Origin: a virus
DNA length: 42,587 bases
IMG/VR virus record: IMGVR_UViG_3300045988_039819
Coordinates: 1 to 42,587 of that record
Reading direction: 5' to 3' (one strand)
Part shown: positions 6,527 through 35,782 of the stretch, one piece after another
Layout of the letters: the number at the start of each line of letters is the position of its first letter
Numbering within the stretch: the first letter of the stretch is position 1
Notes under the pieces: generated by a model
Told to the model about the DNA's origin: nothing
Databases searched by the model: none
What the model saw: only the letters and a program-made list of their open reading frames with translations
Position numbers and translations under genes: made by a program

Positions 6527-7142
6527 TTGCTTTCCTCCGTTTCACAATTTCATCGTAATGCGGCTTCACGCGGATCACATTCCAGTCGCATTCCTCCGGT
6601 ACTTTTCCGTAGAATATCACCCATTCCGGTGAAAGACGTTTCATCATTTCTTCGTAACCGCGCAGGAAGAGCCGCTTGCTTTCCTTGTTCTGCTGTGTGC
6701 CTACCGAGCTAACTGCAACTATCCCTCCGACAGGCTCGCCATCAAAGCACCAATCGTAACTATCCTCGTCGCTCCATGAGATTGAGGGATAGACCGTCAT
6801 GCCGTGCATTTGCCAGTATGCCGCCAGCCAGTGCTTGCGATAGTGGTTGTATATCTGCATCGCCAACGGCATATCCGTGTATGTGGAGAAGTCCGGCGCG
6901 CACACCGCCGCAAACTGCGACAGTTGCGGAATGTACTTGTCAGGCGTGTTCCAATATCGAATGAATTGGTAATCGTCCACGAAGAAATGCACAATCTTGC
7001 TTTTCGTGTCTTTCGCGGTGTAATGGTAATTCACGGGGATAAACTCACCTTGTGGGTATGCCTTGACCGGCTCGATCTGCGGAATGTCGTACTTTCCAAC
7101 GCCGGGGAATGTGAACTTGTTGAGATTTTCAAAGTTAATCAT
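6495..7142 (-). CDS. DUF4417-like protein
   Basis: The start is at MINFENL (ATG 7142). The signature KIVHFFVDDYQFIRYWNTP...APDFSTYTDMP...N matches my memory of DUF4417. The function is unknown. Confidence 0.55.
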   Translation of the reverse strand: MINFENLNKFTFPGVGKYDIPQIEPVKAYPQGEFIPVNYHYTAKDTKSKIVHFFVDDYQFIRYWNTPDKYIPQLSQFAAVCAPDFSTYTDMPLAMQIYNHYRKHWLAAYWQMHGMTVYPSISWSDEDSYDWCFDGEPVGGIVAVSSVGTQQNKESKRLFLRGYEEMMKRLSPEWVIFYGKVPEECDWNVIRVKPHYDEIVKRRKANEISVSAGNP

Positions 7143-7151
7143 AAATCCCCC

Positions 7152-7196
7152 AGCAAACAAAAATGCCGCAAGATACATTTCTGTACCTTACGGCAT
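7152..7196 (-). terminator. Intrinsic terminator inside the head module
   Basis: On the minus strand ATGCCGTAAG-14 nt-CTTGCGGCAT forms a 10-bp stem with one mismatch. It is followed by TTTTTGTTTG and lies between ORF 7256..7648 and the DUF4417-like gene. Confidence 0.55.
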
Positions 7197-7255
7197 AGCA
7201 AGCGCCCGGAATCAAACCGGAACTTCCTCAATCAAAGTGTGCTGCCATTACACCA

Positions 7256-7648
7256 CTACTTGCTACGCCGATTATACCATATTTTTTTGACCCGCTCAAC
7301 CATTTTCTTTTCTTCGGTTGTCAGGTTTGCATACTTTTTCGCGCTGTCGTTCTCGCTGTGGATATATCCGTGATGGGTATGTGGGGAAACTTTATCGTGC
7401 GGCCTGTCCAAGTCTATCTGCTTTGTCCTTTTATTTGCCGCATCGTAATATGTAATTGCCTTGATATTGTCGTTTTTGTTTAGCGTCACATAAACGCGCC
7501 CTTTGGTCATTGTTTCCATAGGCGTTTTCTGCGCGCCGTCAACCGCCTTGACAAACTTGATATTGCTTTCCTTGACGAGTGTTTTAAACTCGCTCCCGTA
7601 AGTCTTGCCGCTTACGCTGATACCGCTGCTTGCGCCGCGTCCACCCAT
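7256..7648 (-). CDS. Hypothetical protein starting with MGGRG and carrying the His-cluster PHTHHGYIH
   Basis: The start is at MGGRGASSG. The ATG at 7648 overlaps the upstream TAA as TAATGGGTGG. The protein is 130 aa and beta-rich, and the gene has lower GC than its surroundings. Confidence 0.6.
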   Translation of the reverse strand: MGGRGASSGISVSGKTYGSEFKTLVKESNIKFVKAVDGAQKTPMETMTKGRVYVTLNKNDNIKAITYYDAANKRTKQIDLDRPHDKVSPHTHHGYIHSENDSAKKYANLTTEEKKMVERVKKIWYNRRSK

Positions 7649-8187
7649 TAAACAGGTCTCCATGTACCGCTGCGCTTGTTAGCCCTGCGGTATTTCTTTC
7701 CGTTTACCGTAACTTCTAACGCGCCGGACTTTTGCGCTGTTACAAAGGCATTGGAAAACGCCTTGTTTTCTGCTGCTTTGCGGTTTTTACTGGACTGGTC
7801 ACGCAATTTCCGCATGTAGCTATCCATTTCACCGCGCGCTCTTGCAGCTCTGTCTGCGGCGCTTCCTGTTTTCTGCGCCGTTGTCAGGCGTGCAGGCCCA
7901 CTTGCATAAGGATTGACTGCTCCTGCCGCCGTTTTGAGCGCCGTTGTTGCGAGAGTTGCCATCTGCTTTACGGCGTCTTTCTTTTCAGCGTCCGACAGCG
8001 CAAGCCCATTGATTTCAGCAGCGTTGCGCTCAAATGTGCGCCTGATAATATCGCCCATATCAGTGACAGACGCAGCGTTTGCTCGGTTAATATCCTGCTG
8101 TGACAAAAACCGCGCAAGGCTCATACCGCGCCCACGCCCAAATTCTCCAGCTCCAATGCCGCCACCAGCTCCGCCTCTGCCGCCCAT
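7648..8187 (-). CDS. Hypothetical protein starting with MGGRG (Gly-rich N-terminus, basic helical remainder)
   Basis: The start is at MGGRGGAGGG. The ATG at 8187 overlaps the portal TAA as TAATGGGCGG, with AGGAGG upstream. The protein is 179 aa. Confidence 0.6.
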   Translation of the reverse strand: MGGRGGAGGGIGAGEFGRGRGMSLARFLSQQDINRANAASVTDMGDIIRRTFERNAAEINGLALSDAEKKDAVKQMATLATTALKTAAGAVNPYASGPARLTTAQKTGSAADRAARARGEMDSYMRKLRDQSSKNRKAAENKAFSNAFVTAQKSGALEVTVNGKKYRRANKRSGTWRPV

Positions 8188-25928: not shown

Positions 25929-26954
25929 GTGAAAATTCCGGAGCCAATAAAGCTACCATCAGGGAAATACCGCATCCAGATCATGGTTGACGGGAAACGA
26001 GTTGGAAACACTTTTGATACGGCGGAAGAGGCTCAATTTTGGGCCTCCGGCATCAAAACAAAAATGGTGGAGGCGCAAAAGCCTGTAAGAAGACTTACAG
26101 TTGGGGAAGCTGCCGACCGATACATCGAATCCAGAAGCGAGGTTCTTTCCCCGTCCACTATTGCCGGGTATAAACGCATCCGAAAAAATCTGATGAAGGA
26201 TATTGAGAATATCGTTTTAGCCGATCTCACACAAGAACGGGTGCAGCGCTGGGTAAACAGGCTATCGAGGGAAGGAAAAACGCCGAAGACAATTGCAAAC
26301 GCACACGGATTTTTGAGCCCAATCCTTGCGGAGTATAAGCCGGAAATGGCCTTACGCACAACCATGCCACAAAAAGTAAAAACGGAAATTGAGATACCGT
26401 CCGAGGCCGACGCTGTAGCCATTGCCAACGCATGCAAAGGTACAAAATACGAGCTGCCAATTATGATTGCCATTTGGCTTGGCCTCCGGGCATCCGAGAT
26501 TATTGGCCTGCGCTGGAATGATATTGATGGTGAGTATCTGCAAATCCGAAGGGCCATTGTGGCCGGGGAAAACGGGCCTGTTGAAAAGGGAGTAAAAACG
26601 TATAGCGGCACCAGAAGGGTACACCTTCCGCCCTACCTTTTTGATTTAATCCAGAGGCAGCCGAAGACAAGCGAACACATTGTGAACCTTTCCGGACATG
26701 CGCTATATAGTGGCTTTGTCCGCATCTGCGAGAAGGCCAAAGTCAGGCACTACCGATTCCACGATCTGCGGCACTTTAACGCATCCGTCATGCTGGCGGA
26801 AGGTATCCCGGATAAGTATGGCATAAAGCGGATGGGCCACGCTACCAACAACATGTTAAAAACCACGTACCAACACACTCTTGCCGAAAAAGAAAAGGCG
26901 TTTGATAAAATCATTGACGGGCATTTTGAGGAGTTGTTCGCTCCGAAAGAATAG
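25929..26954 (+). CDS. int: Tyrosine recombinase / phage integrase
   Basis: 341 aa, GTG start after AGGAGG. Catalytic signatures are LGLRASE, HDLRHF and GHATNNMLKTTYQH. Confidence 0.9.
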   Translation: MKIPEPIKLPSGKYRIQIMVDGKRVGNTFDTAEEAQFWASGIKTKMVEAQKPVRRLTVGEAADRYIESRSEVLSPSTIAGYKRIRKNLMKDIENIVLADLTQERVQRWVNRLSREGKTPKTIANAHGFLSPILAEYKPEMALRTTMPQKVKTEIEIPSEADAVAIANACKGTKYELPIMIAIWLGLRASEIIGLRWNDIDGEYLQIRRAIVAGENGPVEKGVKTYSGTRRVHLPPYLFDLIQRQPKTSEHIVNLSGHALYSGFVRICEKAKVRHYRFHDLRHFNASVMLAEGIPDKYGIKRMGHATNNMLKTTYQHTLAEKEKAFDKIIDGHFEELFAPKE

Positions 26955-26960
26955 CCCATT

Positions 26961-27018
26961 TTCGTGTGCAATTTCGTGTGCAATTTTTCCCTTAAAAATT
27001 GATTTTTAATTGCACACG
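26961..27018. repeat. attP arm-type sites (int-proximal arm)
   Basis: TTCGTGTGCAAT occurs twice in tandem (26961-26984), with an inverted copy ATTGCACACG at 27009-27018. Confidence 0.6.
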
Positions 27019-27077
27019 CTAAAATAGACTTGTAAAATTTAAAAGACGCAAGAGCCGCCAAACCCGCATAAAATCAA

Positions 27078-27114
27078 GAAAAACCGGGGAACCATTGAGA
27101 TTCCTCGGTTTTTC
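27078..27114. terminator. Bidirectional intrinsic terminator next to the attP core
   Basis: A run of A residues is followed by CCGGGGAA-9 nt-TTCCTCGG (8 bp, one G:U) and TTTTT. On the minus strand this element directly follows the tRNA 3' fragment. Confidence 0.6.
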
Positions 27115-27117
27115 CTT

Positions 27118-27147
27118 TGGTGGAGGCGAGGGGAGTTGAACCCCTGC
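27118..27147 (-). other. attP core: 3' end of a tRNA gene (T-arm, acceptor 3' strand and CCA)
   Basis: The minus-strand sequence is GCAGGGG-TTCAACT-CCCCT-CGCCTCC-A-CCA. No 5' half is present. The position, about 165 bp downstream of int between the repeated arm sites, is classic for integration into a tRNA gene. Confidence 0.65.
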
Positions 27148-27190
27148 TTAAAACATTTACAAACCGCATAAATTCAACGAAAGAATCGAG

Positions 27191-27213
27191 TTGTGTGCAA
27201 TTTCGTGTGCAAT
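27191..27213. repeat. attP arm-type sites (distal arm)
   Basis: TTGTGTGCAAT followed by TTCGTGTGCAAT, in the same orientation as the 26961-26984 copies. Confidence 0.6.
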
Positions 27214-27222
27214 TTTGCGGAG

Positions 27223-27561
27223 TTAAAGTGCCTGAATCTTCCGCATTACGCTGTTGTAAACCCGCTCGTTTACAATGCGTAACGTATCCATCAGCTCATC
27301 CACAACCGCCCACGCCTTTGCCGGGTTTTTCCCGGCGACGGCCCGAAGAAAATCAGTATCGCCGTACTCCCCCACGTCGGCGCTTACCGCAACGGTAGGC
27401 GCCGCAGAGGAGTACATCACCGGAGCTACTGTGCTTTCGGGCTTTCTTTTGTGCTGGTTTTGGATGATGTAGAGAGCCGCCAGTTTCTCGTAGTTGTTCC
27501 AGCTGGATTCTTCCGTTTCTAGGCGGCTGATCCATAGTCGGAGCTCGTTCTCGTCGATCAT
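27223..27561 (-). CDS. Cargo operon gene 8: hypothetical protein
   Basis: 112 aa and helical (ELRLWISRLETEESSWNNYEKLAALYII...VVDELMDTLRIVNERVYNSVMRKI). Confidence 0.55.
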   Translation of the reverse strand: MIDENELRLWISRLETEESSWNNYEKLAALYIIQNQHKRKPESTVAPVMYSSAAPTVAVSADVGEYGDTDFLRAVAGKNPAKAWAVVDELMDTLRIVNERVYNSVMRKIQAL

Positions 27562-27575
27562 GGGGTTACACCCCC

Positions 27576-27950
27576 TCAGCCCTCCATCAGGGACATTGCC
27601 CGCCGAAGGGCCTCTTTTACCCGCTCGTCGTCGGTTTCCCGCAGCATATCATTGAGCTGCTCCCGCAAATGCTCTGCCCCGCCAGTGCGGCTATACCTAC
27701 CGCGGGAATCCCGATGGCGGCCCCGCCAGGAATCGCCGTGGCCGTAGGTGCCTCGAATATCGGCTTCCCAGTCGCCGGTGCCGGAATAGCCCTCGCTTTC
27801 CATCATCTCGATCTTGTCGATGTTCTTGATGGTGTCCGTCAGCTTGTGCGCAATTTCGAGATCGCCCGCGCCAAGCTCGCCCTTACGTGCCAGCTCGTCG
27901 AGTTCGTCGCACAGCATATTGCGCAGATCATACATTGCTTTCTTGCTCAT
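27576..27950 (-). CDS. Cargo operon gene 7: hypothetical charged protein with an RG/RD-rich centre
   Basis: The start is at MSKKAMYDL, the second ATG, 7 nt after AAAGGAG. The central segment is GHGDSWRGRHRDSRGRYSRTGG. Confidence 0.55.
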   Translation of the reverse strand: MSKKAMYDLRNMLCDELDELARKGELGAGDLEIAHKLTDTIKNIDKIEMMESEGYSGTGDWEADIRGTYGHGDSWRGRHRDSRGRYSRTGGAEHLREQLNDMLRETDDERVKEALRRAMSLMEG

Positions 27951-27963
27951 GTCCATTCTCCTT

Positions 27964-28386
27964 TCACGCGATTCTCTCAACCGTCAGATTCGAGTTGGCG
28001 AAGTTGACGGCCTGAGTGCTGGTGTTTTCCATTGCGACCGTCAGGCAGCAGCCTTTCGGAACGCAAACCTGTGCGGAAACATAAATGTTAAAGTAGTTTT
28101 CTACCGCCGCAGGCGTAACAGTTGCCGTTGCACTGGTCAGCGGCTCTCCGTTGATGGCAAGCGCCGCCGTGATGGCCTCGACCGTGCCTCCGGTTGGAAT
28201 AGCGATGTTGCCGCCAAAGGAGATCCTAAACAGGGCGCGATTTTGATTAGTGAGGCCGCGCAGCGTGACAATGCCTGCGCCCTGGCGATGCACGATACAC
28301 GGCTTGCTATTGACCGCCGTTTCGGTCAACGGAACGTTCTGCCCTGCGGCTACGCTTACAATATTCGCGTTTGTGTACTCTGCCAA
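27964..28386 (-). CDS. Cargo operon gene 6: beta-rich 140-aa protein, possibly a C1q/TNF-like (BclA C-terminal-domain-like) jelly roll
   Basis: The start is TTG at 28386. The sequence alternates in a beta-strand pattern (IVHRQGAGIVTLRG...LFRISFGGNIAIPTGG...ALAINGEPL...CCLTVAMENTS...NLTVERIA). The fold assignment rests on resemblance only. Confidence 0.4.
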   Translation of the reverse strand: MAEYTNANIVSVAAGQNVPLTETAVNSKPCIVHRQGAGIVTLRGLTNQNRALFRISFGGNIAIPTGGTVEAITAALAINGEPLTSATATVTPAAVENYFNIYVSAQVCVPKGCCLTVAMENTSTQAVNFANSNLTVERIA

Positions 28387-28539
28387 AATAATCAGTCCTT
28401 TCTAAAGGGGTCGAAATCGACCCTGTTAAAATACAGCGGCGAGGCAATAGCCCCGCCGCGTTGTCGTAGTATCGGCACGGGGCCGACCATCTCGGTAACG
28501 TCACCGATATGGTGACCGAGAAGCTATGCTATGCAGTTG

Positions 28540-29274
28540 TCAGCAGCCGCATCCCTGATTGCAGCCGCAGCCGCCGTAACCGCTGCCCGCCCACGGGTTA
28601 CAAGTAATGTAGGCAGGCGAAGGGCACGGACGAAGCTGAGAGATCAGATAGTTGTTCTGCGCAGCCTGAGAAGCGGCAAGGCGCAGCTCCTGATTGGCAC
28701 TTTCCAGGTCGCGCATCTTGTTCTGCGTCAGGAAGTCAAGGATAGCGCGGCTATTCTGGTTCTGGTTGTCGATGATGTCACGCGCAGCGGTGTTGACCGT
28801 GTTGCGGGTGTCGCACGCCTGCGTCGCCATATCGTACCGCACCTGGGCAATAGCCGCCCGGTTCTCGCAGCAGCACTCCTGGTTCTGCATCTGCATGGCG
28901 GTGAGCTGCTGCATCAGCGCCGCCTGCTGGTTGCTACGGGACAGCTCGGCCTGTGCAAAGCCGTTTGCCATCGCCATGTTGGTGCCGTTGACAAGCTGCG
29001 CCTGCTGGTAAAATCCGTCGCAAAGGCCCTGATTTACGCTGTCGATCTTGCGCTCGACATTGGCAAAGTCAGAGGTCAGAACATAACCGTCCATCACGCC
29101 GTTGCCGCCGCCACCGAAGCCGAAGCCGTTACCCCAGCCGCCAAACGCGGCGAAAATGAGAAACAGCACGATCCACCACGCGCCATCGCCGCCCCAGCCG
29201 AAGCCGCTACCGTTGCCAGTGTTGGCAGGAGCCACAGGCATAGTCAGCATGGTGCCGTCAGAGGAAAGAGACAT
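28540..29274 (-). CDS. Cargo operon gene 5: Gly-rich, single-TM, Q/N-rich coiled-coil protein with a Cys-rich C-terminus
   Basis: 244 aa. It has GNGSGFGWGGDGAWWIVLFLIFAAFGGWGNGFGFGGGGNG, a central ECCCEN, and a C-terminal PCPSPAYITCNPWAGSGYGGCGCNQGCGC. Confidence 0.65.
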   Translation of the reverse strand: MSLSSDGTMLTMPVAPANTGNGSGFGWGGDGAWWIVLFLIFAAFGGWGNGFGFGGGGNGVMDGYVLTSDFANVERKIDSVNQGLCDGFYQQAQLVNGTNMAMANGFAQAELSRSNQQAALMQQLTAMQMQNQECCCENRAAIAQVRYDMATQACDTRNTVNTAARDIIDNQNQNSRAILDFLTQNKMRDLESANQELRLAASQAAQNNYLISQLRPCPSPAYITCNPWAGSGYGGCGCNQGCGC

Positions 29275-29327
29275 AGTATCACTCCTTTTGAAAAAATGTT
29301 TATATCAAACCGTGGCCACGATTTTGA

Positions 29328-29549
29328 TTACTTGAAAAGCCCCTGAAATTGGTTCGCCATTGACTGTATCTTGTTCAACTGGTCTTGTGAGATTTTGCCG
29401 CTTTGCAGCATCTTCTCCACTTCCGCTTTTGGGTCGCCTTTAAAACTTGCCTTGAACTGCTTGAACTGCTGTAACAGCTGGGGAAAGCCGCCCATCGACC
29501 CCGGCATCTGTCCGCCGCCCAACGCATTGAAAAACGGATTGTTACTCAT
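29328..29549 (-). CDS. Cargo operon gene 4: small Q/K-rich protein
   Basis: 73 aa (GGFPQLLQQFKQFKASFKGDPKAEVEKMLQSGKISQDQLNKIQSMANQFQGLFK). Confidence 0.55.
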   Translation of the reverse strand: MSNNPFFNALGGGQMPGSMGGFPQLLQQFKQFKASFKGDPKAEVEKMLQSGKISQDQLNKIQSMANQFQGLFK

Positions 29550-29976
29550 CGTCTTCGTCCTCCTCCACCTTGCGTTTCTTCTTGCCCTTTATTTCGCCCA
29601 CAAGTGCCGCCAGACGGTCGAACTCCTCGCGGGTGACAAATTCCACGCTTTTCCCCTGCGGCGCTGTACGGGGCGTTTCTGCGCGTTCTACGAGGTCGTA
29701 AATCTTGAGCGTCGGCTTGCCGCTTGCATCCGCTTGCTTGAGATACACAGCCGGAGCGGTGGAATCCCACAGCGCCACAGCAGAGTTGGGAGCGATGAGA
29801 TAGCCTCTTGCCTCCTGCTCGCCGCTTACCCACTGCACGCCGCCCTGCGCCACCGGATTCTGCGGAACGGGCTGCGGAATCTGCGGCTGCATCATCTGCT
29901 GCTGCCGCATCTGCATGAGGTTATCGGGCATCGGTTGAGGATAATACGGGTTTTGGTAGTAAGGATTAAATGCCAT
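29542..29976 (-). CDS. Cargo operon gene 3: protein with a Q/P/Y-rich N-terminus, a beta core and a Lys/acidic tail
   Basis: The start is at MAFNPYYQNPYYPQPMPDNLMQMRQQQMMQPQIPQPVPQNP (ATG 29976), after GGAGG. The tail is KGKKKRKVEEDEDDE. Confidence 0.6.
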   Translation of the reverse strand: MAFNPYYQNPYYPQPMPDNLMQMRQQQMMQPQIPQPVPQNPVAQGGVQWVSGEQEARGYLIAPNSAVALWDSTAPAVYLKQADASGKPTLKIYDLVERAETPRTAPQGKSVEFVTREEFDRLAALVGEIKGKKKRKVEEDEDDE

Positions 29977-29978
29977 GT

Positions 29979-30362
29979 CTATGCCTCCGTTTCTTTTTCC
30001 CAGTAGTACAGCGGCACTTCGCCGCCAGAATTCCACGAATCAAAAATCACACCATCCTGTACGCATACCACATGCCCGGATAGCGCCAAAATGTATGTGC
30101 CTACCGGTTTTTCCGTTGCAAAATCCGCCACCGTGAAGCAATCCGGGCATGTATCGGGGACGATATGCCGCCGGTAACCCAGCTTGCGGAGGTAAGCGCC
30201 CCAGCAAGCGTTTGCATTTGGAAGATCGCCGTCCAAGTACCCCTGGATGCAAAGCGCCAAATACACTTCGCCCCAGTCCTTTCCGGTTGCCTTGCAGATC
30301 GCCCGAACGGTGCAATCGGAAACATTGCGCCCGTTGGGGTTTGGGTTAAAGTAGCTATACAT
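29979..30362 (-). CDS. Cargo operon gene 2: putative papain-fold Cys-His-Asp protein (peptidase or transglutaminase-like)
   Basis: 127 aa. The residues N-terminal SDCTVRAI (Cys), later SGHVVCV (His) and DSWNSG (Asp) are ordered as in papain-like catalytic triads. Confidence 0.45.
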   Translation of the reverse strand: MYSYFNPNPNGRNVSDCTVRAICKATGKDWGEVYLALCIQGYLDGDLPNANACWGAYLRKLGYRRHIVPDTCPDCFTVADFATEKPVGTYILALSGHVVCVQDGVIFDSWNSGGEVPLYYWEKETEA

Positions 30363-30498
30363 GATCCGCCCTAGCGCTATGCATCAGCTCAATGGTTTTT
30401 ACGTACTGCGCCAGCCCGTCCAGATCGTTGGCGTAAGCAATAATGATGTCCCAGGCCATGCGATCCGTGAAGCCGCAGGCAATAAGGCGATCAAACAT
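30355..30498 (-). CDS. Cargo operon gene 1: micro-ORF (47 aa), absent from the ORF track
   Basis: The translation is MFDRLIACGFTDRMAWDIIIAYANDLDGLAQYVKTIELMHSARADHV*. The RBS is GGAAGGTGG. The ORF overlaps the next gene's start by 8 nt. Confidence 0.45.
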   Translation of the reverse strand: MFDRLIACGFTDRMAWDIIIAYANDLDGLAQYVKTIELMHSARADHV

Positions 30499-30527
30499 TT
30501 AACCACCTTCCTTCTTCCCTTATGGTA

Positions 30528-30555
30528 CAAAAAATTCGGGCAGTCAAACTGCCCG
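30528..30555 (-). terminator. Hairpin plus T-run on the minus strand, upstream of the cargo operon
   Basis: On the minus strand CGGGCAG-tttga-CTGCCCG is followed by AATTTTTTGT. Confidence 0.45.
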
Positions 30556-30575
30556 GATTCTGCCTGGATTCTGCC
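30555..30575. repeat. Tandem 11-nt direct repeat (GGATTCTGCC twice)
   Basis: GGATTCTGCCtGGATTCTGCC, lying between two hairpins in the divergent control region. Confidence 0.6.
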
Positions 30576-30634
30576 GTTGTCAAAGCGCACAAAAACCGCC
30601 GCCGGTTTTGTGCAGCTCTACAAACCTCAAAAAA

Positions 30635-30655
30635 TACCCCAAATTGGGGTATAAT
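30635..30655. promoter_or_regulatory. Hairpin TACCCCA-aat-TGGGGTA overlapping a plus-strand TATAAT box
   Basis: On the minus strand the hairpin is followed by TTTTTTGAGG, which is terminator-like. On the plus strand TATAAT (30650-30655) lies 44 nt upstream of the ATG at 30699. No good -35 element is present. Confidence 0.4.
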
Positions 30656-30698
30656 AATAAATGTAATCAAGAGGGGCAAAGCCCAGGAAGATAAAAAG

Positions 30699-30890
30699 AT
30701 GAAGAACACTATGTGGTATGCGGTTATGCGGGACAACGACGATACTGATTGGGGCACCGGCAGCAACAACATGGACGAGGCCATCGAGATGGCCAAGAAG
30801 TACCGCGCCGACGGGTACGAGGACGCTTACATCGCCGTGATCGACGACGGAGACGATCCTACTTGCGTGGACGAGATCCGGGATTTTTGA
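30699..30890 (+). CDS. Small acidic hypothetical protein
   Basis: 63 aa: MKNTMWYAVMRDNDDTDWGTGSNNMDEAIEMAKKYRADGYEDAYIAVIDDGDDPTCVDEIRDF. The RBS is AGGAAG. This type recurs on Firmicutes mobile elements, as far as I remember. Confidence 0.55.
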   Translation: MKNTMWYAVMRDNDDTDWGTGSNNMDEAIEMAKKYRADGYEDAYIAVIDDGDDPTCVDEIRDF

Positions 30891-30903
30891 GGAGAAAAGC
30901 GAC

Positions 30904-31155
30904 ATGTATTTTTGGCGATATGTCAATTTTGATACCGATGAGCAGGACAACTGCTGCGGCGTTTGCGATAGCATCGATTTGGCTCGCAACTGGGCCAAAA
31001 AGACTTGGGAGCGGCAATCCGCCAAGAGATCTTGTCGTGTGGAACTCTGCGAGATCGATACTCAGCTACACTCTACAGATTTGGCATATGCCTTACACAA
31101 CACCGACAGCAAGATCTCTATGCTCGCACAGGTTATAGAGAGATGGGAGCGATGA
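30904..31155 (+). CDS. Hypothetical Cys-containing protein
   Basis: 83 aa with a CCGVCD cluster. Confidence 0.5.
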   Translation: MYFWRYVNFDTDEQDNCCGVCDSIDLARNWAKKTWERQSAKRSCRVELCEIDTQLHSTDLAYALHNTDSKISMLAQVIERWER

Positions 31156-31502
31156 TGGACGATAAATTCAGTGCGCTTTTCAGCGCCGCGCTAAAGACGG
31201 ATGATCGGGATGAGTATATCTCCGATTGGGCGCTTTCCTCCGAATAGGAAGATGCCGCGGATGCTGAGGTCCCCGATCAGAGGATCAGCGCCCTCGGTGC
31301 CCTCTGGGATGTGGCCCACGCCAGTATCCGGGAAATCCGGGCCTATACCGGCCTCACCCGCACAAACTTTGCCCTCCGCTACCTGATCCCGTACCGCTCC
31401 GTGGAGAATTGGGAGCGGGGCGACAGCCAGTGCCCGGATTACGTCCGTCTCCTGCTGGCTCAGGTCACTGGCTTCTATCGCCGCCCGGGAGAAAGCCAAT
31501 AA
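31152..31502 (+). pseudogene. HTH protein gene interrupted by a single in-frame TAG (31245-31247)
   Basis: I read the frame codon by codon. MMDDKFSALFSAALKTDDRDEYISDWALSSE-TAG-EDAADAEVPDQRISALGALWDVAHASIREIRAYTGLTRTNFALRYLIPYRSVENWERGDSQCPDYVRLL... is a single frame. The tracked downstream ORF begins at a GTG (31311) with no RBS. Confidence 0.5.
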
Positions 31503-31503
31503 A

Positions 31504-31536
31504 AGGAGGCCGTGCCCAAATTGGACACGGCCTCCT
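31504..31536. terminator. Bidirectional intrinsic terminator between convergent genes
   Basis: AGGAGGCCGTG-11 nt-CACGGCCTCCT forms an 11-bp stem. On the minus strand it is followed by TTTTATT. Confidence 0.65.
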
Positions 31537-31537
31537 C

Positions 31538-31774
31538 TTATCCCCTGATGTCGTCCGCCAGGTGGGCGTAGGCCCTCCGGCGGAGCTTGTAGAGCCCATC
31601 CACGCTGAGGTTGAGCCGGGCGGCAGTCTGCAGGCAGCTGCGGCCCAGGACGTCCACCTCAACGATGCAGGTCTCCTCGTCCGGCGGCAAGCCCGCCGCA
31701 CGGACCGCCTCCGTGGCCCGGCGTGGGGCCATGCCGGAGAGCAGCGCTCTGATCTCCCGGTGCTGTGCGTCCAT
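31538..31774 (-). CDS. Small sigma-70 region-4-like HTH protein
   Basis: 78 aa. LQTAARLNLSVDGLYKLRRRAYAHL resembles a region-4 / LuxR-type HTH. It is the last gene after the endolysin. Confidence 0.5.
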   Translation of the reverse strand: MDAQHREIRALLSGMAPRRATEAVRAAGLPPDEETCIVEVDVLGRSCLQTAARLNLSVDGLYKLRRRAYAHLADDIRG

Positions 31775-31849
31775 TTACTCGCCGGACTTGCAGGACACGG
31801 CGCGGCCGTGCGGATGTCGCCATCATCTGGCTTGCCTCCTCTCAAATTG

Positions 31850-32863
31850 TTAGCCCGTCCAGTCGGCGCGGGCCTCGCGAATGTCGATGTGGGTAAAGCC
31901 CTGCTTGGCGTAGATGCCCACGCCGCCCCAGTCAGGCATGATCTCCCGGGCGTAGGCGGCCACCTGGGCCGGGGTCTTGCCGCGGACCACGATGTCCGCC
32001 GCCGTGCCGTAGCAGTGCTGGGACTGCGACGCGCCGCCGACCTTGGTATTGTACTGCGGCGTCCGGTAGGCACTGGAGATGGTCACTGGGGCCCCAAAGT
32101 GGCTCCGGATGCTCTGCAGCACCATCACCAGCCGGGGCGCCACCAGGACGGCGTCGCTCCCGTCGCCGCAGGCGAACTCGGAAACCTTGAAATTGGTGGA
32201 CAGCCTCTTGCCGCCGTCCTGGGCCTTGCTGTATGCGTTGATCTCTACCATAGGCTTGCCTCCCTCCGGCTCGTTATCGTTGAGGTATACCAGGATATAG
32301 TGCTGCACCCTCCGGGAGCTTGTGATCCGCTGGCCCTGGAAGTCGCACTGGCTGCTGCCGCCGCTGTCCAGCATCACGGCACTGGTCCAGCCTGCCCGGG
32401 CCAGATCGTTTCGCAGTCCCTCCGGCGTCCGGGCGGCACCGCTGCCGTCTCGGGAGCAGTAGAGGGCCAGCCGGTCGCCCTTGATGCCGATGGCGCTCCG
32501 CCCCCGCTTGCCGCCCTGGCCGGGGTCATAGGTGAGCTTGGCCAAGGCCTTGCCGCTGACAATAAGCGGCGTGCAGGCGATGTAGTTGCGGGCGCTGTCA
32601 GGCAGCGCGTCCATGCGGATGTCCGGCCCCTGGTCCCAGGCGTAGCCCGCCACGGTGTAGGCGGGAGACGCCAGGACCTTGCCGTCCGCCTTGAGATGGC
32701 AGTTGACGGCCAGGGTGCGCATGTTGTAGAGGGTCCCGTTGAGGCCGTAGTCCGCCCCCGTCTCCCGCATGATCTGGGTCAACGTCCTTCGCCGGGTGTT
32801 GACGTACACCTGGATGCGCCCGATCCGGGAGAGCGGCACGGTGACGGCGCTAGGGTTACTCAT
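31850..32863 (-). CDS. Endolysin: N-terminal phosphodiester-glycosidase (NAGPA/DUF2233)-like domain plus C-terminal peptidase M15 domain
   Basis: 337 aa. The N-terminal half carries RSAIGIKGDRLALYC and AVMLDSGGSSQ. The C-terminal half carries SAYRTPQYNTKVGGASQSQHCYGTAADI...FTHIDIR, the zinc D-Ala-D-Ala peptidase signature. It overlaps the holin gene. Confidence 0.75.
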   Translation of the reverse strand: MSNPSAVTVPLSRIGRIQVYVNTRRRTLTQIMRETGADYGLNGTLYNMRTLAVNCHLKADGKVLASPAYTVAGYAWDQGPDIRMDALPDSARNYIACTPLIVSGKALAKLTYDPGQGGKRGRSAIGIKGDRLALYCSRDGSGAARTPEGLRNDLARAGWTSAVMLDSGGSSQCDFQGQRITSSRRVQHYILVYLNDNEPEGGKPMVEINAYSKAQDGGKRLSTNFKVSEFACGDGSDAVLVAPRLVMVLQSIRSHFGAPVTISSAYRTPQYNTKVGGASQSQHCYGTAADIVVRGKTPAQVAAYAREIMPDWGGVGIYAKQGFTHIDIREARADWTG

Positions 32864-33160: not shown

Positions 33161-33559
33161 TTACTCCGTCTCCTCCGTCCAGCCGTACTGACCGGGCTCC
33201 CAGATGTTGCCGTCGATGTCCGAGGTCCAGGTCTTGCCGTTGTGCCGCACCCGGTCCCCCTTACTGTAGGCGTTGGTGCTGTCCGGCTGTACCCAGTCCG
33301 GCACGGTGTCCGGGTCCGGGATCAGCACCCGGGCGAAGAGCGACGGTGCCGCCTCCGGCGTCCAGCTCTCCTGGCTGCTGTGGGCCTGCAGCACCCGGTA
33401 GAGAGTGCCGTTATACCGCACCCGGGTGCCCACGGCGTAGTCCACGCCGGAGCGCCAGGATGGATAAAGGACAGGAACGGACAAGGCCTGTTCATCCGTT
33501 GCCGATTCTCTCAATGTCACCAGTGCCGCAAGGATAGCTTCCGCTTCTGCTCTTGTCAT
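33161..33559 (-). CDS. Protein with two CBM5/12-type carbohydrate-binding repeats
   Basis: YAVGTRVRYNGTLYRVLQAHSSQESWTPEAAPSLF and YSKGDRVRHNGKTWTSDIDGNIWEPG both match the chitin-binding type-3 pattern. Confidence 0.6.
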   Translation of the reverse strand: MTRAEAEAILAALVTLRESATDEQALSVPVLYPSWRSGVDYAVGTRVRYNGTLYRVLQAHSSQESWTPEAAPSLFARVLIPDPDTVPDWVQPDSTNAYSKGDRVRHNGKTWTSDIDGNIWEPGQYGWTEETE

Positions 33560-34353: not shown

Positions 34354-35475
34354 TCAGATCGCCGCCAGCTGCGCCGCCAGACCCTGCATAGCGGCAAGAT
34401 CGGCGTAGAAGTCTGCCTGTGTGCCAGTGTAGCCCCCGGCCTGGGCCGCCGCATAGGCGCTCTGCCCCGCCGGTCCCGTGGGTCCCTGGGGTCCGGTCTC
34501 TCCCTGCGGGCCAGTTCCGCCCTGGGGGCCAGTCTCACCCTGGGGGCCTTGGGGTCCGGTCTCACCCTGCGGCCCCCTGGGTCCGGTCTCACCAGTGGCG
34601 CCTGTGTCACCCTTGGGGCCCTGGGGGCCGGTCAGGGCAGCCAGCTGCTCTGGCGTGAAGTCCGCATAGGTGAAACTGTCGCCCCTCTCTCCCTGGGGTC
34701 CTCGGGGTCCCTGGGGCCCGGTGTCACCCGTCTCGCCTTTCGGTCCCTGCGGGCCCGTCTCTCCCTGCGGGCCGGTCTCGCCCTGCAGACCTCTGGGGCC
34801 GGTGTCGCCGGTGGCGCCCTTGGGGCCGGCGGGTCCCTGAGGCCCCGTCTCACCCTTGGGGCCAGTGGGTCCCGTGGGGCCGGTCGCGCCCTGGGGTCCG
34901 GTGGCTGCCACGCCGCTGTCCGAGTAGGTCCCGGTCTGGGCGTCCCAGGTGTACCAGTTGCCGTTGTCCCCGATCTTGCCGGGATGGGAAGAGACCTCCT
35001 GCGCCGTCGCCGCAGCATCCTCCGCCGCCTTGGCGGCGTCCTCTGCGGCTTTTTGCGCCTCCTGGGCGTCCTTGGCGCCCTGCTGGGCCGCTGCGGCGTC
35101 CTTGCCCGCCTGGTCCAGCCAGCCCTGCTGCACCTCGCCGGGGTCCCCGCAGGCGCAGAGGGAAGGTGCCACCAGCGTCCGCCAAGTCTGGGACTTGGCC
35201 AGCGTGTCCCCCACGTAGTAGGAGAGCTGCACGTTGCCCCAGCCGGGCTTGTCCACGTCGGCACTCCGCAGCACCCAGACCGCCGTGTCCTCGTCCTGCG
35301 TCACGCCGCAGGGATAGGGCTCCGCGTCCCCCGCCCGCTTGGCGCAGAGGCTCACGGCGCCGTCGCCGTAAGCCGCCCGCCAGGCCCGGAGATCGAAGAC
35401 CACCTGCCGGGCTACATTCTCACCCTTGCGCCCCAGCGCCAGGTGGACGCCGGGATGGGCATAGATACTCTGCAT
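34354..35475 (-). CDS. Collagen-like repeat tail fibre protein
   Basis: The start is at MQSIYAHPG (ATG 35475), after AAGGAGG. Two long G-X-Y blocks ([28 protein letters not shown]...) are present. Confidence 0.75.
34450..34905. repeat. Coding G-X-Y (collagen-like) triplet repeats, two blocks
   Basis: Repeated ggtcc/ggGcc...ctc/cac units encode Gly-X-Y. Confidence 0.8.
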
Positions 35476-35485
35476 CGCCGCCTCC

Positions 35486-35782
35486 TTACCGCAGCACCCT
35501 GCGGCCCTTGACGGCGTACCAGTCGCCCTTGAGGCAGACAAAGGCGGGCATCTCGCCGCAGTCGCAGTCCACCAGCTCATCGTCCCGGACCTGCACGGGG
35601 TCCAGGGTGCCGGTGCCGGTGTCCAGCAGACCCCAGCCCGCCTCGATCATCTCGGGCGTCAGCTTGGGGCGCTCCGGGTCCACCATGACGGGATGGCCCA
35701 GCTCCCGCAGCTTGGCGTTGCACTCCTCCAGGGTGATGCCGCCCTGGGCGTAGGCGTTGATGGTCTCAGTAACCTTGCTCAT
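35486..35782 (-). CDS. Hypothetical protein
   Basis: 98 aa within the tail fibre cluster. Confidence 0.5.

Follow-up and report, generated by a model that had tools for sequence, protein, structure and literature searches.

A putative late-lytic, activator-gated gene module with a BclA/TNF-fold protein in a siphophage genome and its gut and rumen relatives

This study concerns an eight-gene cassette in a viral sequence of 42,587 nucleotides (nt), IMG/VR record IMGVR_UViG_3300045988_039819, positions 1 to 42,587 (hereafter the window). The cassette, whose products are herein referred to as P1-P8 in transcription order, occupies the minus strand between a probable phage attachment site (attP) and the lysis genes. 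In our preferred but tentative reading, which has a probability of about 35%, the cassette and s78, a small regulator gene located behind the endolysin gene, form a late-lytic, swappable, activator-gated module that builds a stalk-and-knob assembly from P5 and P6. Among gene blocks that lack annotation, the module is one of the most frequent in phages infecting Clostridia of the gut and rumen. Its gene families were previously catalogued as unknowns, and no description of the module was found in literature searches. As far as the literature shows, the definition of the unit, the regulator-operator pair, the core/accessory structure, the alternative versions and the fold assignments are new. 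Thus, a row of hypothetical proteins becomes a defined unit with a regulator, an operator/promoter, a four-gene core, accessories, two core versions and two folds.

All eight minus-strand open reading frames (ORFs) of a preliminary description, made from the sequence alone, were recovered in an ORF listing over positions 26000-32500 (Table 1). Two of the starts need correction: P3 most likely begins with the ATG of MAFNPYY, 3 nt past the P2 stop, rather than with an upstream GTG, and P7 most likely begins with MDMSKK. The operon was described as tightly packed, which is right for most junctions, as P1/P2 and P3/P4 overlap and the remaining gaps are 3-53 nt; the description fails at a structured gap of 153 nt between P5 and P6. 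The window is a complete siphophage genome, encoding terminase, portal, scaffold, capsid, tape measure, collagen-like fibre, endolysin and integrase, and the cassette is therefore extra to the standard phage functions.

The cassette proteins gave nothing above noise in Pfam, NCBIfam and PADLOC, and no similarity to toxin, bacteriocin or immunity families was found in the Pfam and NCBIfam scans. For nine proteins (the eight and s78), PADLOC had no match at E<=0.1. Six cassette proteins fall into PHROGs families, all of them of unknown function. These scans agree with the earlier statement that no product resembles a standard virion, lysis, replication or defence family, and the compositional descriptions of the products were also accurate. 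No signal peptides were found in the cassette products.

Table 1. Features of the cassette, its control region and its borders in the window (aa, amino acids; HTH, helix-turn-helix; RBS, ribosome-binding site; tmRNA, transfer-messenger RNA; z, z-score against shuffled sequence).
Feature	Coordinates	Strand	Remarks
Integrase	25929-26954	+	Adjoins tmRNA fragment
Hairpin with U-run	27078-27114	-	Ends cassette transcript; -22.8 kcal/mol, z -4.4; abuts tmRNA fragment
tmRNA 3'-end fragment	27118-27188	-	Rfam RF00023, E 4.9e-6, 22 bits, below gathering score
P8	27223-27561	-	112 aa, helical
P7	27576-27956	-	~126 aa, start revised; phrog_28802, E 7e-12
P6	27964-28386	-	140 aa, TTG start
P5-P6 spacer hairpin	28436-28459	-	GC-rich with U-run, terminator-like; -23.3 kcal/mol, z -4.9
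P5	28540-29274	-	244 aa; phrog_16490, E 6e-40
P4	29328-29549	-	73 aa; phrog_22984, E 4e-24
P3	29542-29976	-	144 aa, start revised; phrog_21718, E 4e-32
P2	29979-30362	-	127 aa; matches phrog_3754
P1	30355-30498	-	47 aa, helical micro-protein; stop overlaps P2 start
-10 hexamer	30522-30527	-	TACCAT (consensus TAYNAT), 23 nt upstream of P1 ATG; followed by RBS GGAAGGTGG
Hairpin with T-run	30529-30556	-	Within repeat 3 and spacer; -17.6 kcal/mol, z -4.8
Three 11-bp direct repeats	30543-30575	-	GGCAGAATCCA / GGCAGAATCCG / GGCAGTTTGAC; helically phased, in place of -35
Strong hairpin with T-run	31498-31542		Directly after s78; -36.9 kcal/mol, z -7.9, 0/200 shuffles as stable
s78	31538-31774	-	78 aa, sigma-70 region-4-like HTH; last gene after endolysin, ninth gene of the unit
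Endolysin	31850-32863	-	Upstream of s78, probably on one transcript with it

Loci for comparison were taken from IMG/VR, from GTDB genomes, from exact-match contigs and from a rumen clade seeded with Butyrivibrio phage Ceridwen, and each locus large enough to hold the complete cassette was scanned with profile hidden Markov models of the individual families. Whether the eight genes travel together had been left as a question by the preliminary description, and the comparison shows that they do: order and strand are kept in 53/53 gut loci, 7/7 exact-match contigs and 52/54 rumen loci. In the gut set, P2-P7 were found in all 53 loci and P8 and s78 in 52 each, all colinear. Members of the rumen clade have P2, P3 and P7 (53 of 54 loci each) and less often P8 (25 of 54). 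A more diverse genome set contains P2-P4 in 12 of its 17 loci and P8 in 7. At every locus with room for the cassette, P5 was found together with P6 (17/17 in the diverse set, 53/53 in the gut set and 54/54 in the rumen clade). ORFs homologous to P1 lie upstream of P2 in most lineages; P1 is absent from L027, L082, L114, L115 and the alternative cassette described below. In Ceridwen, P2-P8 are present in the same order at 26-48% identity, together with a P1-like ORF. Only the lytic cycle was seen for this phage, which its authors judged to be virulent (PMC7372960).

Sequence comparison indicates that all eight are real genes under purifying selection. Pairwise ratios of nonsynonymous to synonymous substitution rates (dN/dS) against relatives are lowest for P6, the best-conserved gene of the module, at 0.01-0.06, and lie at 0.06-0.45 in the remaining genes. 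Identities of P4-P5, P2-P3, P6 and P7-P8 are discordant between loci, which indicates exchange of blocks; P4 swaps together with P5 between lineages. In two loci of the rumen clade (L150 and L153), P5-P6 stand upstream of P2-P3-P4, the reverse of the usual order, and hence the P5-P6 pair and the P2-P4 block rearrange as separate units. Identical P6 was found in phages with unrelated tail and lysis modules.

The hosts of module-bearing phages are Oscillospiraceae and other Clostridia, and the module was also found on contigs binned with metagenome-assembled genomes (MAGs) of Bacilli and Anaeroplasmatales. A partial copy lies in an Oscillospiraceae MAG contig of 120 kb (L090, CAKUMO010000002.1), where positions 6600-8820 hold a C-terminal fragment of P5, an intact P6 (84% identical) and P7. 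Its neighbours are ordinary host genes (a CobW-like GTPase, an aminotransferase and a nucleosidase), and a tyrosine recombinase is encoded at a distance of 4 kb. This piece is either a prophage remnant or a retained part of the module.

Many independently made assemblies break within or just past P5 (L010, L012, L040, L047, L059, L060, L065, L080 and GenBank MT835513.1), more frequently than expected for a stretch of 0.8 kb in a 42-kb genome. Moreover, P4-P5 are the most divergent genes among otherwise near-identical phages, which suggests strain-level microdiversity at this spot. Hypervariation of P5 as the target of a diversity-generating retroelement was considered and rejected: the break points do not cluster, and P4 and P5 are exchanged together, so that microdiversity fits the breaks better. 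Reverse transcriptase was sought only among the ORFs scanned against PHROGs.

The control region was analyzed by comparing the upstream sequences of approximately 30 non-redundant lineages. Each of them has a TAYNAT -10 element approximately 23 nt before the first start codon, and no -35 element was found in any. In a by-eye alignment of 15 lineages, the -10 positions T1, A2, A5 and T6 are conserved in 14, 15, 13 and 15 sequences, respectively. Directly upstream, the lineages have three direct repeats of approximately 11 bp, whose sequence varies from one lineage to another; in the window, too, the place of the -35 element is taken by the three phased repeats. A repeat search detected two 11-nt copies at a spacing of 11 nt, and the tandem GGCAGAATCC occurs at this site only within the window. 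The control region predicted earlier at 30499-30698 is real, and can be refined to a -10 hexamer with phased repeats. The hairpin with a T-run in the third repeat has equivalents in many lineages, often also overlapping the third repeat, and looks like an insulator against read-through just upstream of the -10 element. This element is of sigmaA type, and no conserved sigmaE/K/G/F pattern was found in the promoter comparison.

The regulator gene s78 encodes a protein whose residues 28-72 match Pfam Sigma70_r4_2 at E 7.4e-5 (22.7 bits against a cut-off of 25.7); the matches to NCBIfam sigma families are weak. A small region-4-like gene lies 2-75 nt after the lysin gene, on the same strand, in every backbone inspected. 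The gap is 75 nt in the window, and no promoter-like sequence was noticed in it. Regulators and repeats are physically linked, and the type of the recognition helix matches the type of the repeat perfectly over at least six types. Thus, helix SVDGLYKLRRRAY goes with repeat GGCAGAATCC, SVDGLAKLRRRAY with GGGCAnnnnGC, SPEAVNRCRRRAY with TGACCAAA, the xVKKYR types with CACTTT, and SPETVKRCRRRAY with GACCTTT. A second class of region-4-like regulators (L114, L115 and L007) has TGATGCACA/TGAGGCACA repeats, and Ceridwen has its own region-4-like gene with ATTGCACNTAA repeats. The pairing holds with or without genes inserted between the regulator and the promoter. In the loci retrieved with the lysin as query, both s78 and the cassette are missing from phages with more distant lysins.

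Based on gene order, co-occurrence and co-variation, s78 is probably expressed along with the lysis genes and dedicated to activating the cassette, and the three repeats are its probable binding sites. If the activator is indeed made with the lysis genes, the cassette belongs to a very-late class. Small sigma-region-4/HTH phage activators and stand-alone HTH regulators such as GerE form the class with which s78 is to be compared. Like them, s78 appears to be a stand-alone HTH of region-4 type, here paired with a promoter that has phased repeats and no -35 element. It differs in that its gene follows the endolysin instead of preceding the late operon, in that it apparently controls a single cassette, and in that its similarity is below family thresholds. 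The s78 ATG has a weak RBS, and relatives extend s78 in frame at the N-terminus (MSALQAPAHSM...). In addition, the interval between the endolysin and s78 contains the start of a 55-aa ORF with a strong RBS GAGAGGAGG (31659-31826, minus strand), which runs across the s78 start in a different reading frame.

Loci with alternative cargo were fetched with the endolysin as query. In four of them (L202, L205, L206 and L208), a lysin 92-95% identical and an s78 96-100% identical to those of the window are followed by a different cargo; in L212, s78 is 97% identical, the lysin is only 57% identical, and the cargo is again different. The promoter of L202 is that of the window, repeats included. Its cargo consists of P3' (phrog_21718), P4' (phrog_22984), P5' (phrog_16490), a 133-aa BclA_C protein (P6') and a DUF7841 protein, followed by the integrase. 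P6' matches Pfam BclA_C at E 1.5e-6 (28.6 bits, below the cut-off of 38). The DUF7841 gene (Pfam E 4e-21; L202 positions 14159-14656, plus strand) stands after the BclA_C-like gene in place of P7/P8. No P1, P2, P7 or P8 is present in this alternative cassette. Since the same s78 and promoter accompany different cargoes that keep these families, the core is defined as the regulator, the promoter, P3, P4, P5 and a BclA_C-like protein. By this comparison, P1, P2, P7 and P8 are classed as accessories, and the module itself as an accessory to the phage backbone with at least two interchangeable forms.

P6 had been described as an all-beta protein reminiscent of C1q/BclA-type jelly rolls, and structure prediction bears this out. 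Its AlphaFold2 model (predicted local distance difference test score, pLDDT, 91.3) is a compact ten-strand TNF-like jelly roll, for which Foldseek found 167 matches in PDB at E<=1e-3. The best is the exosporium protein BxpB (8d02, E 3.5e-7, template modelling score 0.74/0.70), and the next are ExsFA (7r1m and 9h3d), ExsF with an anchor peptide, F-BclA (9h38) and the C-terminal domain of BclA (1wck), with E-values up to 2e-5 and template modelling scores of approximately 0.7. Further neighbours in PDB are TNF ligands, the phi812 spike knob and a domain of the A-1(L) short fibre. Sequence identity to the structural matches is 10-14%; in sequence searches, the P6 of the window has no match to Pfam BclA_C (PF18573) at E<=1 and no significant PDB sequence-profile match. 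In BFVD, the nearest models are stand-alone proteins of approximately 135 aa from gut sipho-, podo- and myophages, some of them named 'BclA protein' (template modelling scores 0.8-0.9), and later neighbours are C1q/collagen fibre heads, fibritin neck whiskers and tail fibres. At least 7603 homologous clusters at 90% identity were found. The P6 start codon is TTG in the window and ATG elsewhere. P6 is presumably a trimeric knob, and comparison of models indicates that the BclA_C/TNF fold is widely used in viral fibres.

P5, the constant partner of P6, is Gly-rich, contains 11 Cys and ends in GCGCNQGCGC, as described earlier. The proposed single transmembrane segment was upheld in part: one hydrophobic segment is present, but it is only borderline (Kyte-Doolittle mean of 1.68 over 19 residues). 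Conserved features are an N-terminal MPVAP, the hydrophobic segment with its Gly/Trp flanks, a helical, Q/N-rich region that always contains CCC, the Pro-rich motif RPxPxPAY and the Cys-rich tail. At least 8000 homologues were found by profile search, and no functional name occurs among the 120 matches listed. P5 followed by P6 resembles a split version of the stalk-plus-knob fibres of viruses, such as fibritin whiskers, giant-virus collagen-like C1q fibres and tail-fibre tips. PRD1 P5 is a stalk-plus-knob fibre with a TNF/C1q-type head. The module differs from these fibres by its separate stalk and knob genes, by the hydrophobic segment and Cys clusters of P5, by its position after the lysis genes and by its own probable activator.

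The spacer between P5 and P6 (28387-28539, minus strand) contains four hairpins in a row, one of them terminator-like, which are kept among close relatives. The structure is absent from Ceridwen, where P5 and P6 abut, and from other lineages. These hairpins may act as an attenuator or as a stabiliser of the P6 mRNA. The sequence CATAGCATA after the P5 stop fits a sigmaK -10 element and was tried as a sporulation promoter; it was rejected, because there is no -35 AC at 16-17 nt, a terminator follows, and the sequence is missing where the spacer is missing. In an Rfam scan of positions 26900-31900, the tmRNA fragment was the sole match, and neither structured spacer matched a riboswitch or leader.

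The order Cys...His...Asp in P2, compared earlier with that of papain-fold enzymes, is conserved in a set of 61 diverse homologues (34-57% identity): D16 is invariant, and C17, H97 and D108 are nearly so. The AlphaFold2 model (pLDDT 95.9) has a papain-like topology with the Cys at a helix N-terminus and the His and Asp on adjacent strands. Foldseek gave a best E of 0.11 and papain-like matches at E 0.4-3 (Josephin-2, Tae4, TssM and the foot-and-mouth disease virus leader protease Lpro), none of them significant. A PDB sequence-profile search and a Pfam scan of every alignment member found no match; in GenBank, some homologues are labelled 'putative peptidase'. From the model, P2 is predicted to be a small Cys-His-Asp enzyme of papain-like topology, that is, a protease, an amidase or a transglutaminase-type enzyme. 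It shares with the clan CA cysteine peptidases, amidases and transglutaminases the canonical residue order on a helix-plus-strands scaffold, and differs from them in being smaller than known members and in lacking significant similarity; its enzymatic role is likewise a prediction from the model. Since the P2 family also occurs alone, in the early region of GBK2, in Tsamsa/Kirov-type Bacillus phages and in Lak megaphages, P2 is separable from the module.

The remaining proteins have conserved motifs, and for P3, P4, P7 and P8 no relative of known function was detected. The Q/P/Y-rich N-terminus and the KGKKKRK-acidic tail reported for P3 are present; its layout is a disordered P/Q/Y-rich N-terminus, a conserved small beta domain (W49..D71..K80.D83.SG.P), a helix and the charged tail. 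Neither a PDB profile match for P3 nor a Pfam match for any member of its alignment was found. P4 is Q/K-rich, as stated earlier, and helical, with an NPF..GG N-terminus. P7 has helical ends and an R/S/Y/G/D-rich centre.

Taken together, these data can be read as follows. The activator s78, the last gene of the holin-endolysin transcript, would bind the three phased repeats that replace the -35 element and let the host RNA polymerase use the TAYNAT -10 element, while the hairpin with a T-run in the repeat array would block read-through. Expression of the cassette would then have to await the build-up of s78 and begin only as the latent period closes. Its products, having no signal peptides, would assemble in the cytoplasm, a step proposed here on the basis of modelled folds. 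P6 would be the BclA_C/TNF-fold knob and P5, which is long, helical and Q/N-rich and contains Cys, would serve as a stalk or anchor. Leader peptides rich in Pro are bound by ExsF (PMC12357932), and by analogy the Pro-rich terminal peptides of P5 could dock on a P6 trimer as the exosporium leader peptide does on ExsF. P3 and P4 may be small adaptors or helpers, P2 an optional processing or cross-linking enzyme, and P1, P7 and P8 optional accessories. More speculatively, the stalk-and-knob would leave with the progeny at lysis, on virions or free, as a determinant of binding or specificity; such a role would explain the alternative core versions in otherwise near-identical phages. If an assembly released at lysis is confirmed, it would add a new structural or ecological layer to siphophage biology and place the BclA/ExsF design outside spores. 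The predictions are directly testable, because Ceridwen and its host are in culture.

Several points weigh against this proposal. The late timing is deduced from gene order, and a promoter could lie inside the 3' end of the lysin gene; physical linkage could account for part of the co-variation between s78 and the repeats. The interaction of P5 with P6 is a prediction from models. The presence of identical P6 in backbones with different tail and lysis genes argues against attachment to a particular virion, and a decoration tied to a particular capsid or tail was set aside as weakened by it. In addition, a hydrophobic segment like that of P5 would be uncommon in a virion protein, and the module stands apart from the operon of structural genes. 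Receptor-binding knobs usually show the greatest variability, whereas P6 shows the least of all module members.

The least unlikely alternative to the stalk-and-knob module is that the products act as intracellular effectors of host takeover, anti-defence, superinfection exclusion or lysis timing and form no structure. With no other module genes around them, relatives of P2 are encoded in regions of early or host-takeover type in GBK2 and Tsamsa/Kirov-like phages, signal peptides are absent, and the membrane-like segment of P5 is encoded beside the lysis genes; mosaic swapping and alternative cores are also common for defence and counter-defence loci. However, the PADLOC scan gave no match, a late activator coupled to lysis would be odd for early-acting takeover or anti-defence genes, and the dN/dS of P6 is unlike that of typical arms-race genes. 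Moreover, a TNF/BclA_C knob with long low-complexity partners looks structural. For an exclusion system, which the preliminary description had offered as an alternative, no positive evidence turned up.

More doubtful is a lysis-released extracellular factor, comparable in its release to Shiga toxin or colicins, that acts on bacteria, on debris (by receptor masking) or on the animal host. A dedicated activator beside the lysis genes and the absence of signal peptides would suit such a factor, the TNF/C1q fold is typically an extracellular binding module, and phages of the gut and rumen carry the cassette very often. The absence of similarity to toxin, bacteriocin or immunity families, with no immunity gene evident, speaks against it, as does the spread of the module over thousands of phage lineages, whereas toxin cargo is sporadic. 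In the anoxic gut, extracellular chemistry that depends on disulfides also seems doubtful.

Lysogenic conversion, in which exosporium- or coat-like building blocks supplied by a prophage are added to the spore within the cytoplasm of the mother cell, is improbable. The building blocks would be a P6 of BxpB/BclA type, the Cys-rich P5 and Q/K-rich substrates, with P2 as a transglutaminase- or protease-like enzyme. This reading draws on the best structural matches of P6 (exosporium BxpB, ExsFA and the BclA C-terminal domain) and on the BclA_C match of P6', on the Cys-, Gly-, Q/K- and R/S/Y-rich compositions without signal peptides, which are like those of coat and exosporium proteins, on the position next to attP, on hosts among the Oscillospiraceae and other Clostridia, and on the chromosomal remnant L090 among host genes. 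P6 resembles BxpB further in being a stand-alone protein of ~140 aa, and the Pro-rich termini of P5 recall the leaders bound by ExsF. Unlike the BclA/BxpB exosporium system, the cassette has no GXY repeats (the only collagen repeats of the window belong to the tail fibre encoded at 34354-35580), and it lacks a collagen-like stalk, an exosporium leader motif and a sporulation-type promoter; instead, it has a sigmaA-type -10 element with activator repeats. Butyrivibrio, the host genus of Ceridwen, does not form spores, and yet the full module is present in this phage, judged virulent, on Butyrivibrio fibrisolvens; thus, P6 is encoded even by a phage of a non-sporulating host. The contigs binned with Bacilli and Anaeroplasmatales MAGs and the frequency of the BclA_C/TNF fold in viral fibres point the same way, and the wiring of the cassette to a probable post-lysin activator argues against expression in lysogens independent of lytic genes. 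The earlier proposal that the cassette remodels the spore or envelope of the lysogen is therefore poorly supported, in view of the promoter type, the apparently lysis-linked activator and the occurrence in Ceridwen; a role in the vegetative envelope is unlikely because no product has a signal peptide.

Least probable of all is a late self-assembling set of proteins, possibly cross-linked through Cys or Gln-Lys, that forms an exosporium-like coat, a fibre nap or an occlusion matrix around the progeny; if real, it would give phages of strict anaerobes a spore-like protective or adhesive layer for host-to-host transmission and would represent a phage structure of a new class, comparable to the very-late occlusion proteins of baculoviruses.

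At its other end, the cassette borders on the integration functions. The tmRNA 3' fragment between P8 and the integrase gene is the probable attP core, which suggests that host ssrA is the integration site and that the phage brings a 3' end and terminator of its own to replace those of the gene. Many prophage-type IMG/VR contigs stop approximately 850 nt past P6, the position of the tmRNA fragment. The hairpin with a U-run that ends the cassette transcript was probably copied along with the tmRNA 3' end. The strong hairpin after s78 is best read, from its sequence, as a terminator separating the lysis/s78 transcript from the converging plus-strand genes. Both flanking terminators had been predicted, and both fold far better than shuffled sequence. 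The cassette is thus an independent transcription unit with a promoter, terminators and attP at its border, as expected for a lysogenic-conversion moron, and it shares with such morons the position between the lysis genes and the attachment site. It differs from them in being colinear across hundreds of phages rather than sporadic, in its lysis-linked activator and in its presence in an apparently virulent phage.

A set of plus-strand genes is inserted between s78 and the cassette promoter (30699-30890, 30904-31155 and 31311-31502), one of which encodes an HTH protein (phrog_955-like). The insert starts with a 19-bp perfect palindrome, ATACCCCAAATTGGGGTAT, at 30634-52, and relatives have other palindromes (TACGCTAATATTAGCGTA). 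In the equivalent insert of L114, a consensus TTGACT-17-TATAAT promoter overlaps TACGCTCATTGAGCGTA. The insert (30634-31502) looks like a separate, self-regulated moron.

Elsewhere in the window, ARAGORN predicted a tRNA-like gene with an undetermined anticodon (12164-12238, minus strand). Just upstream of the lysis genes, a 408-aa tail fibre with collagen repeats is encoded at 34354-35580 on the minus strand. A collagen-like fibre and a BxpB-like P6 in one genome echo the BclA-BxpB pair; this pairing is not kept in other backbones with the same P6. Also just upstream of the lysis genes, the minus strand encodes a 132-aa protein with two carbohydrate-binding repeats of the CBM5/12 type (33161-33559, E 2.5e-20).

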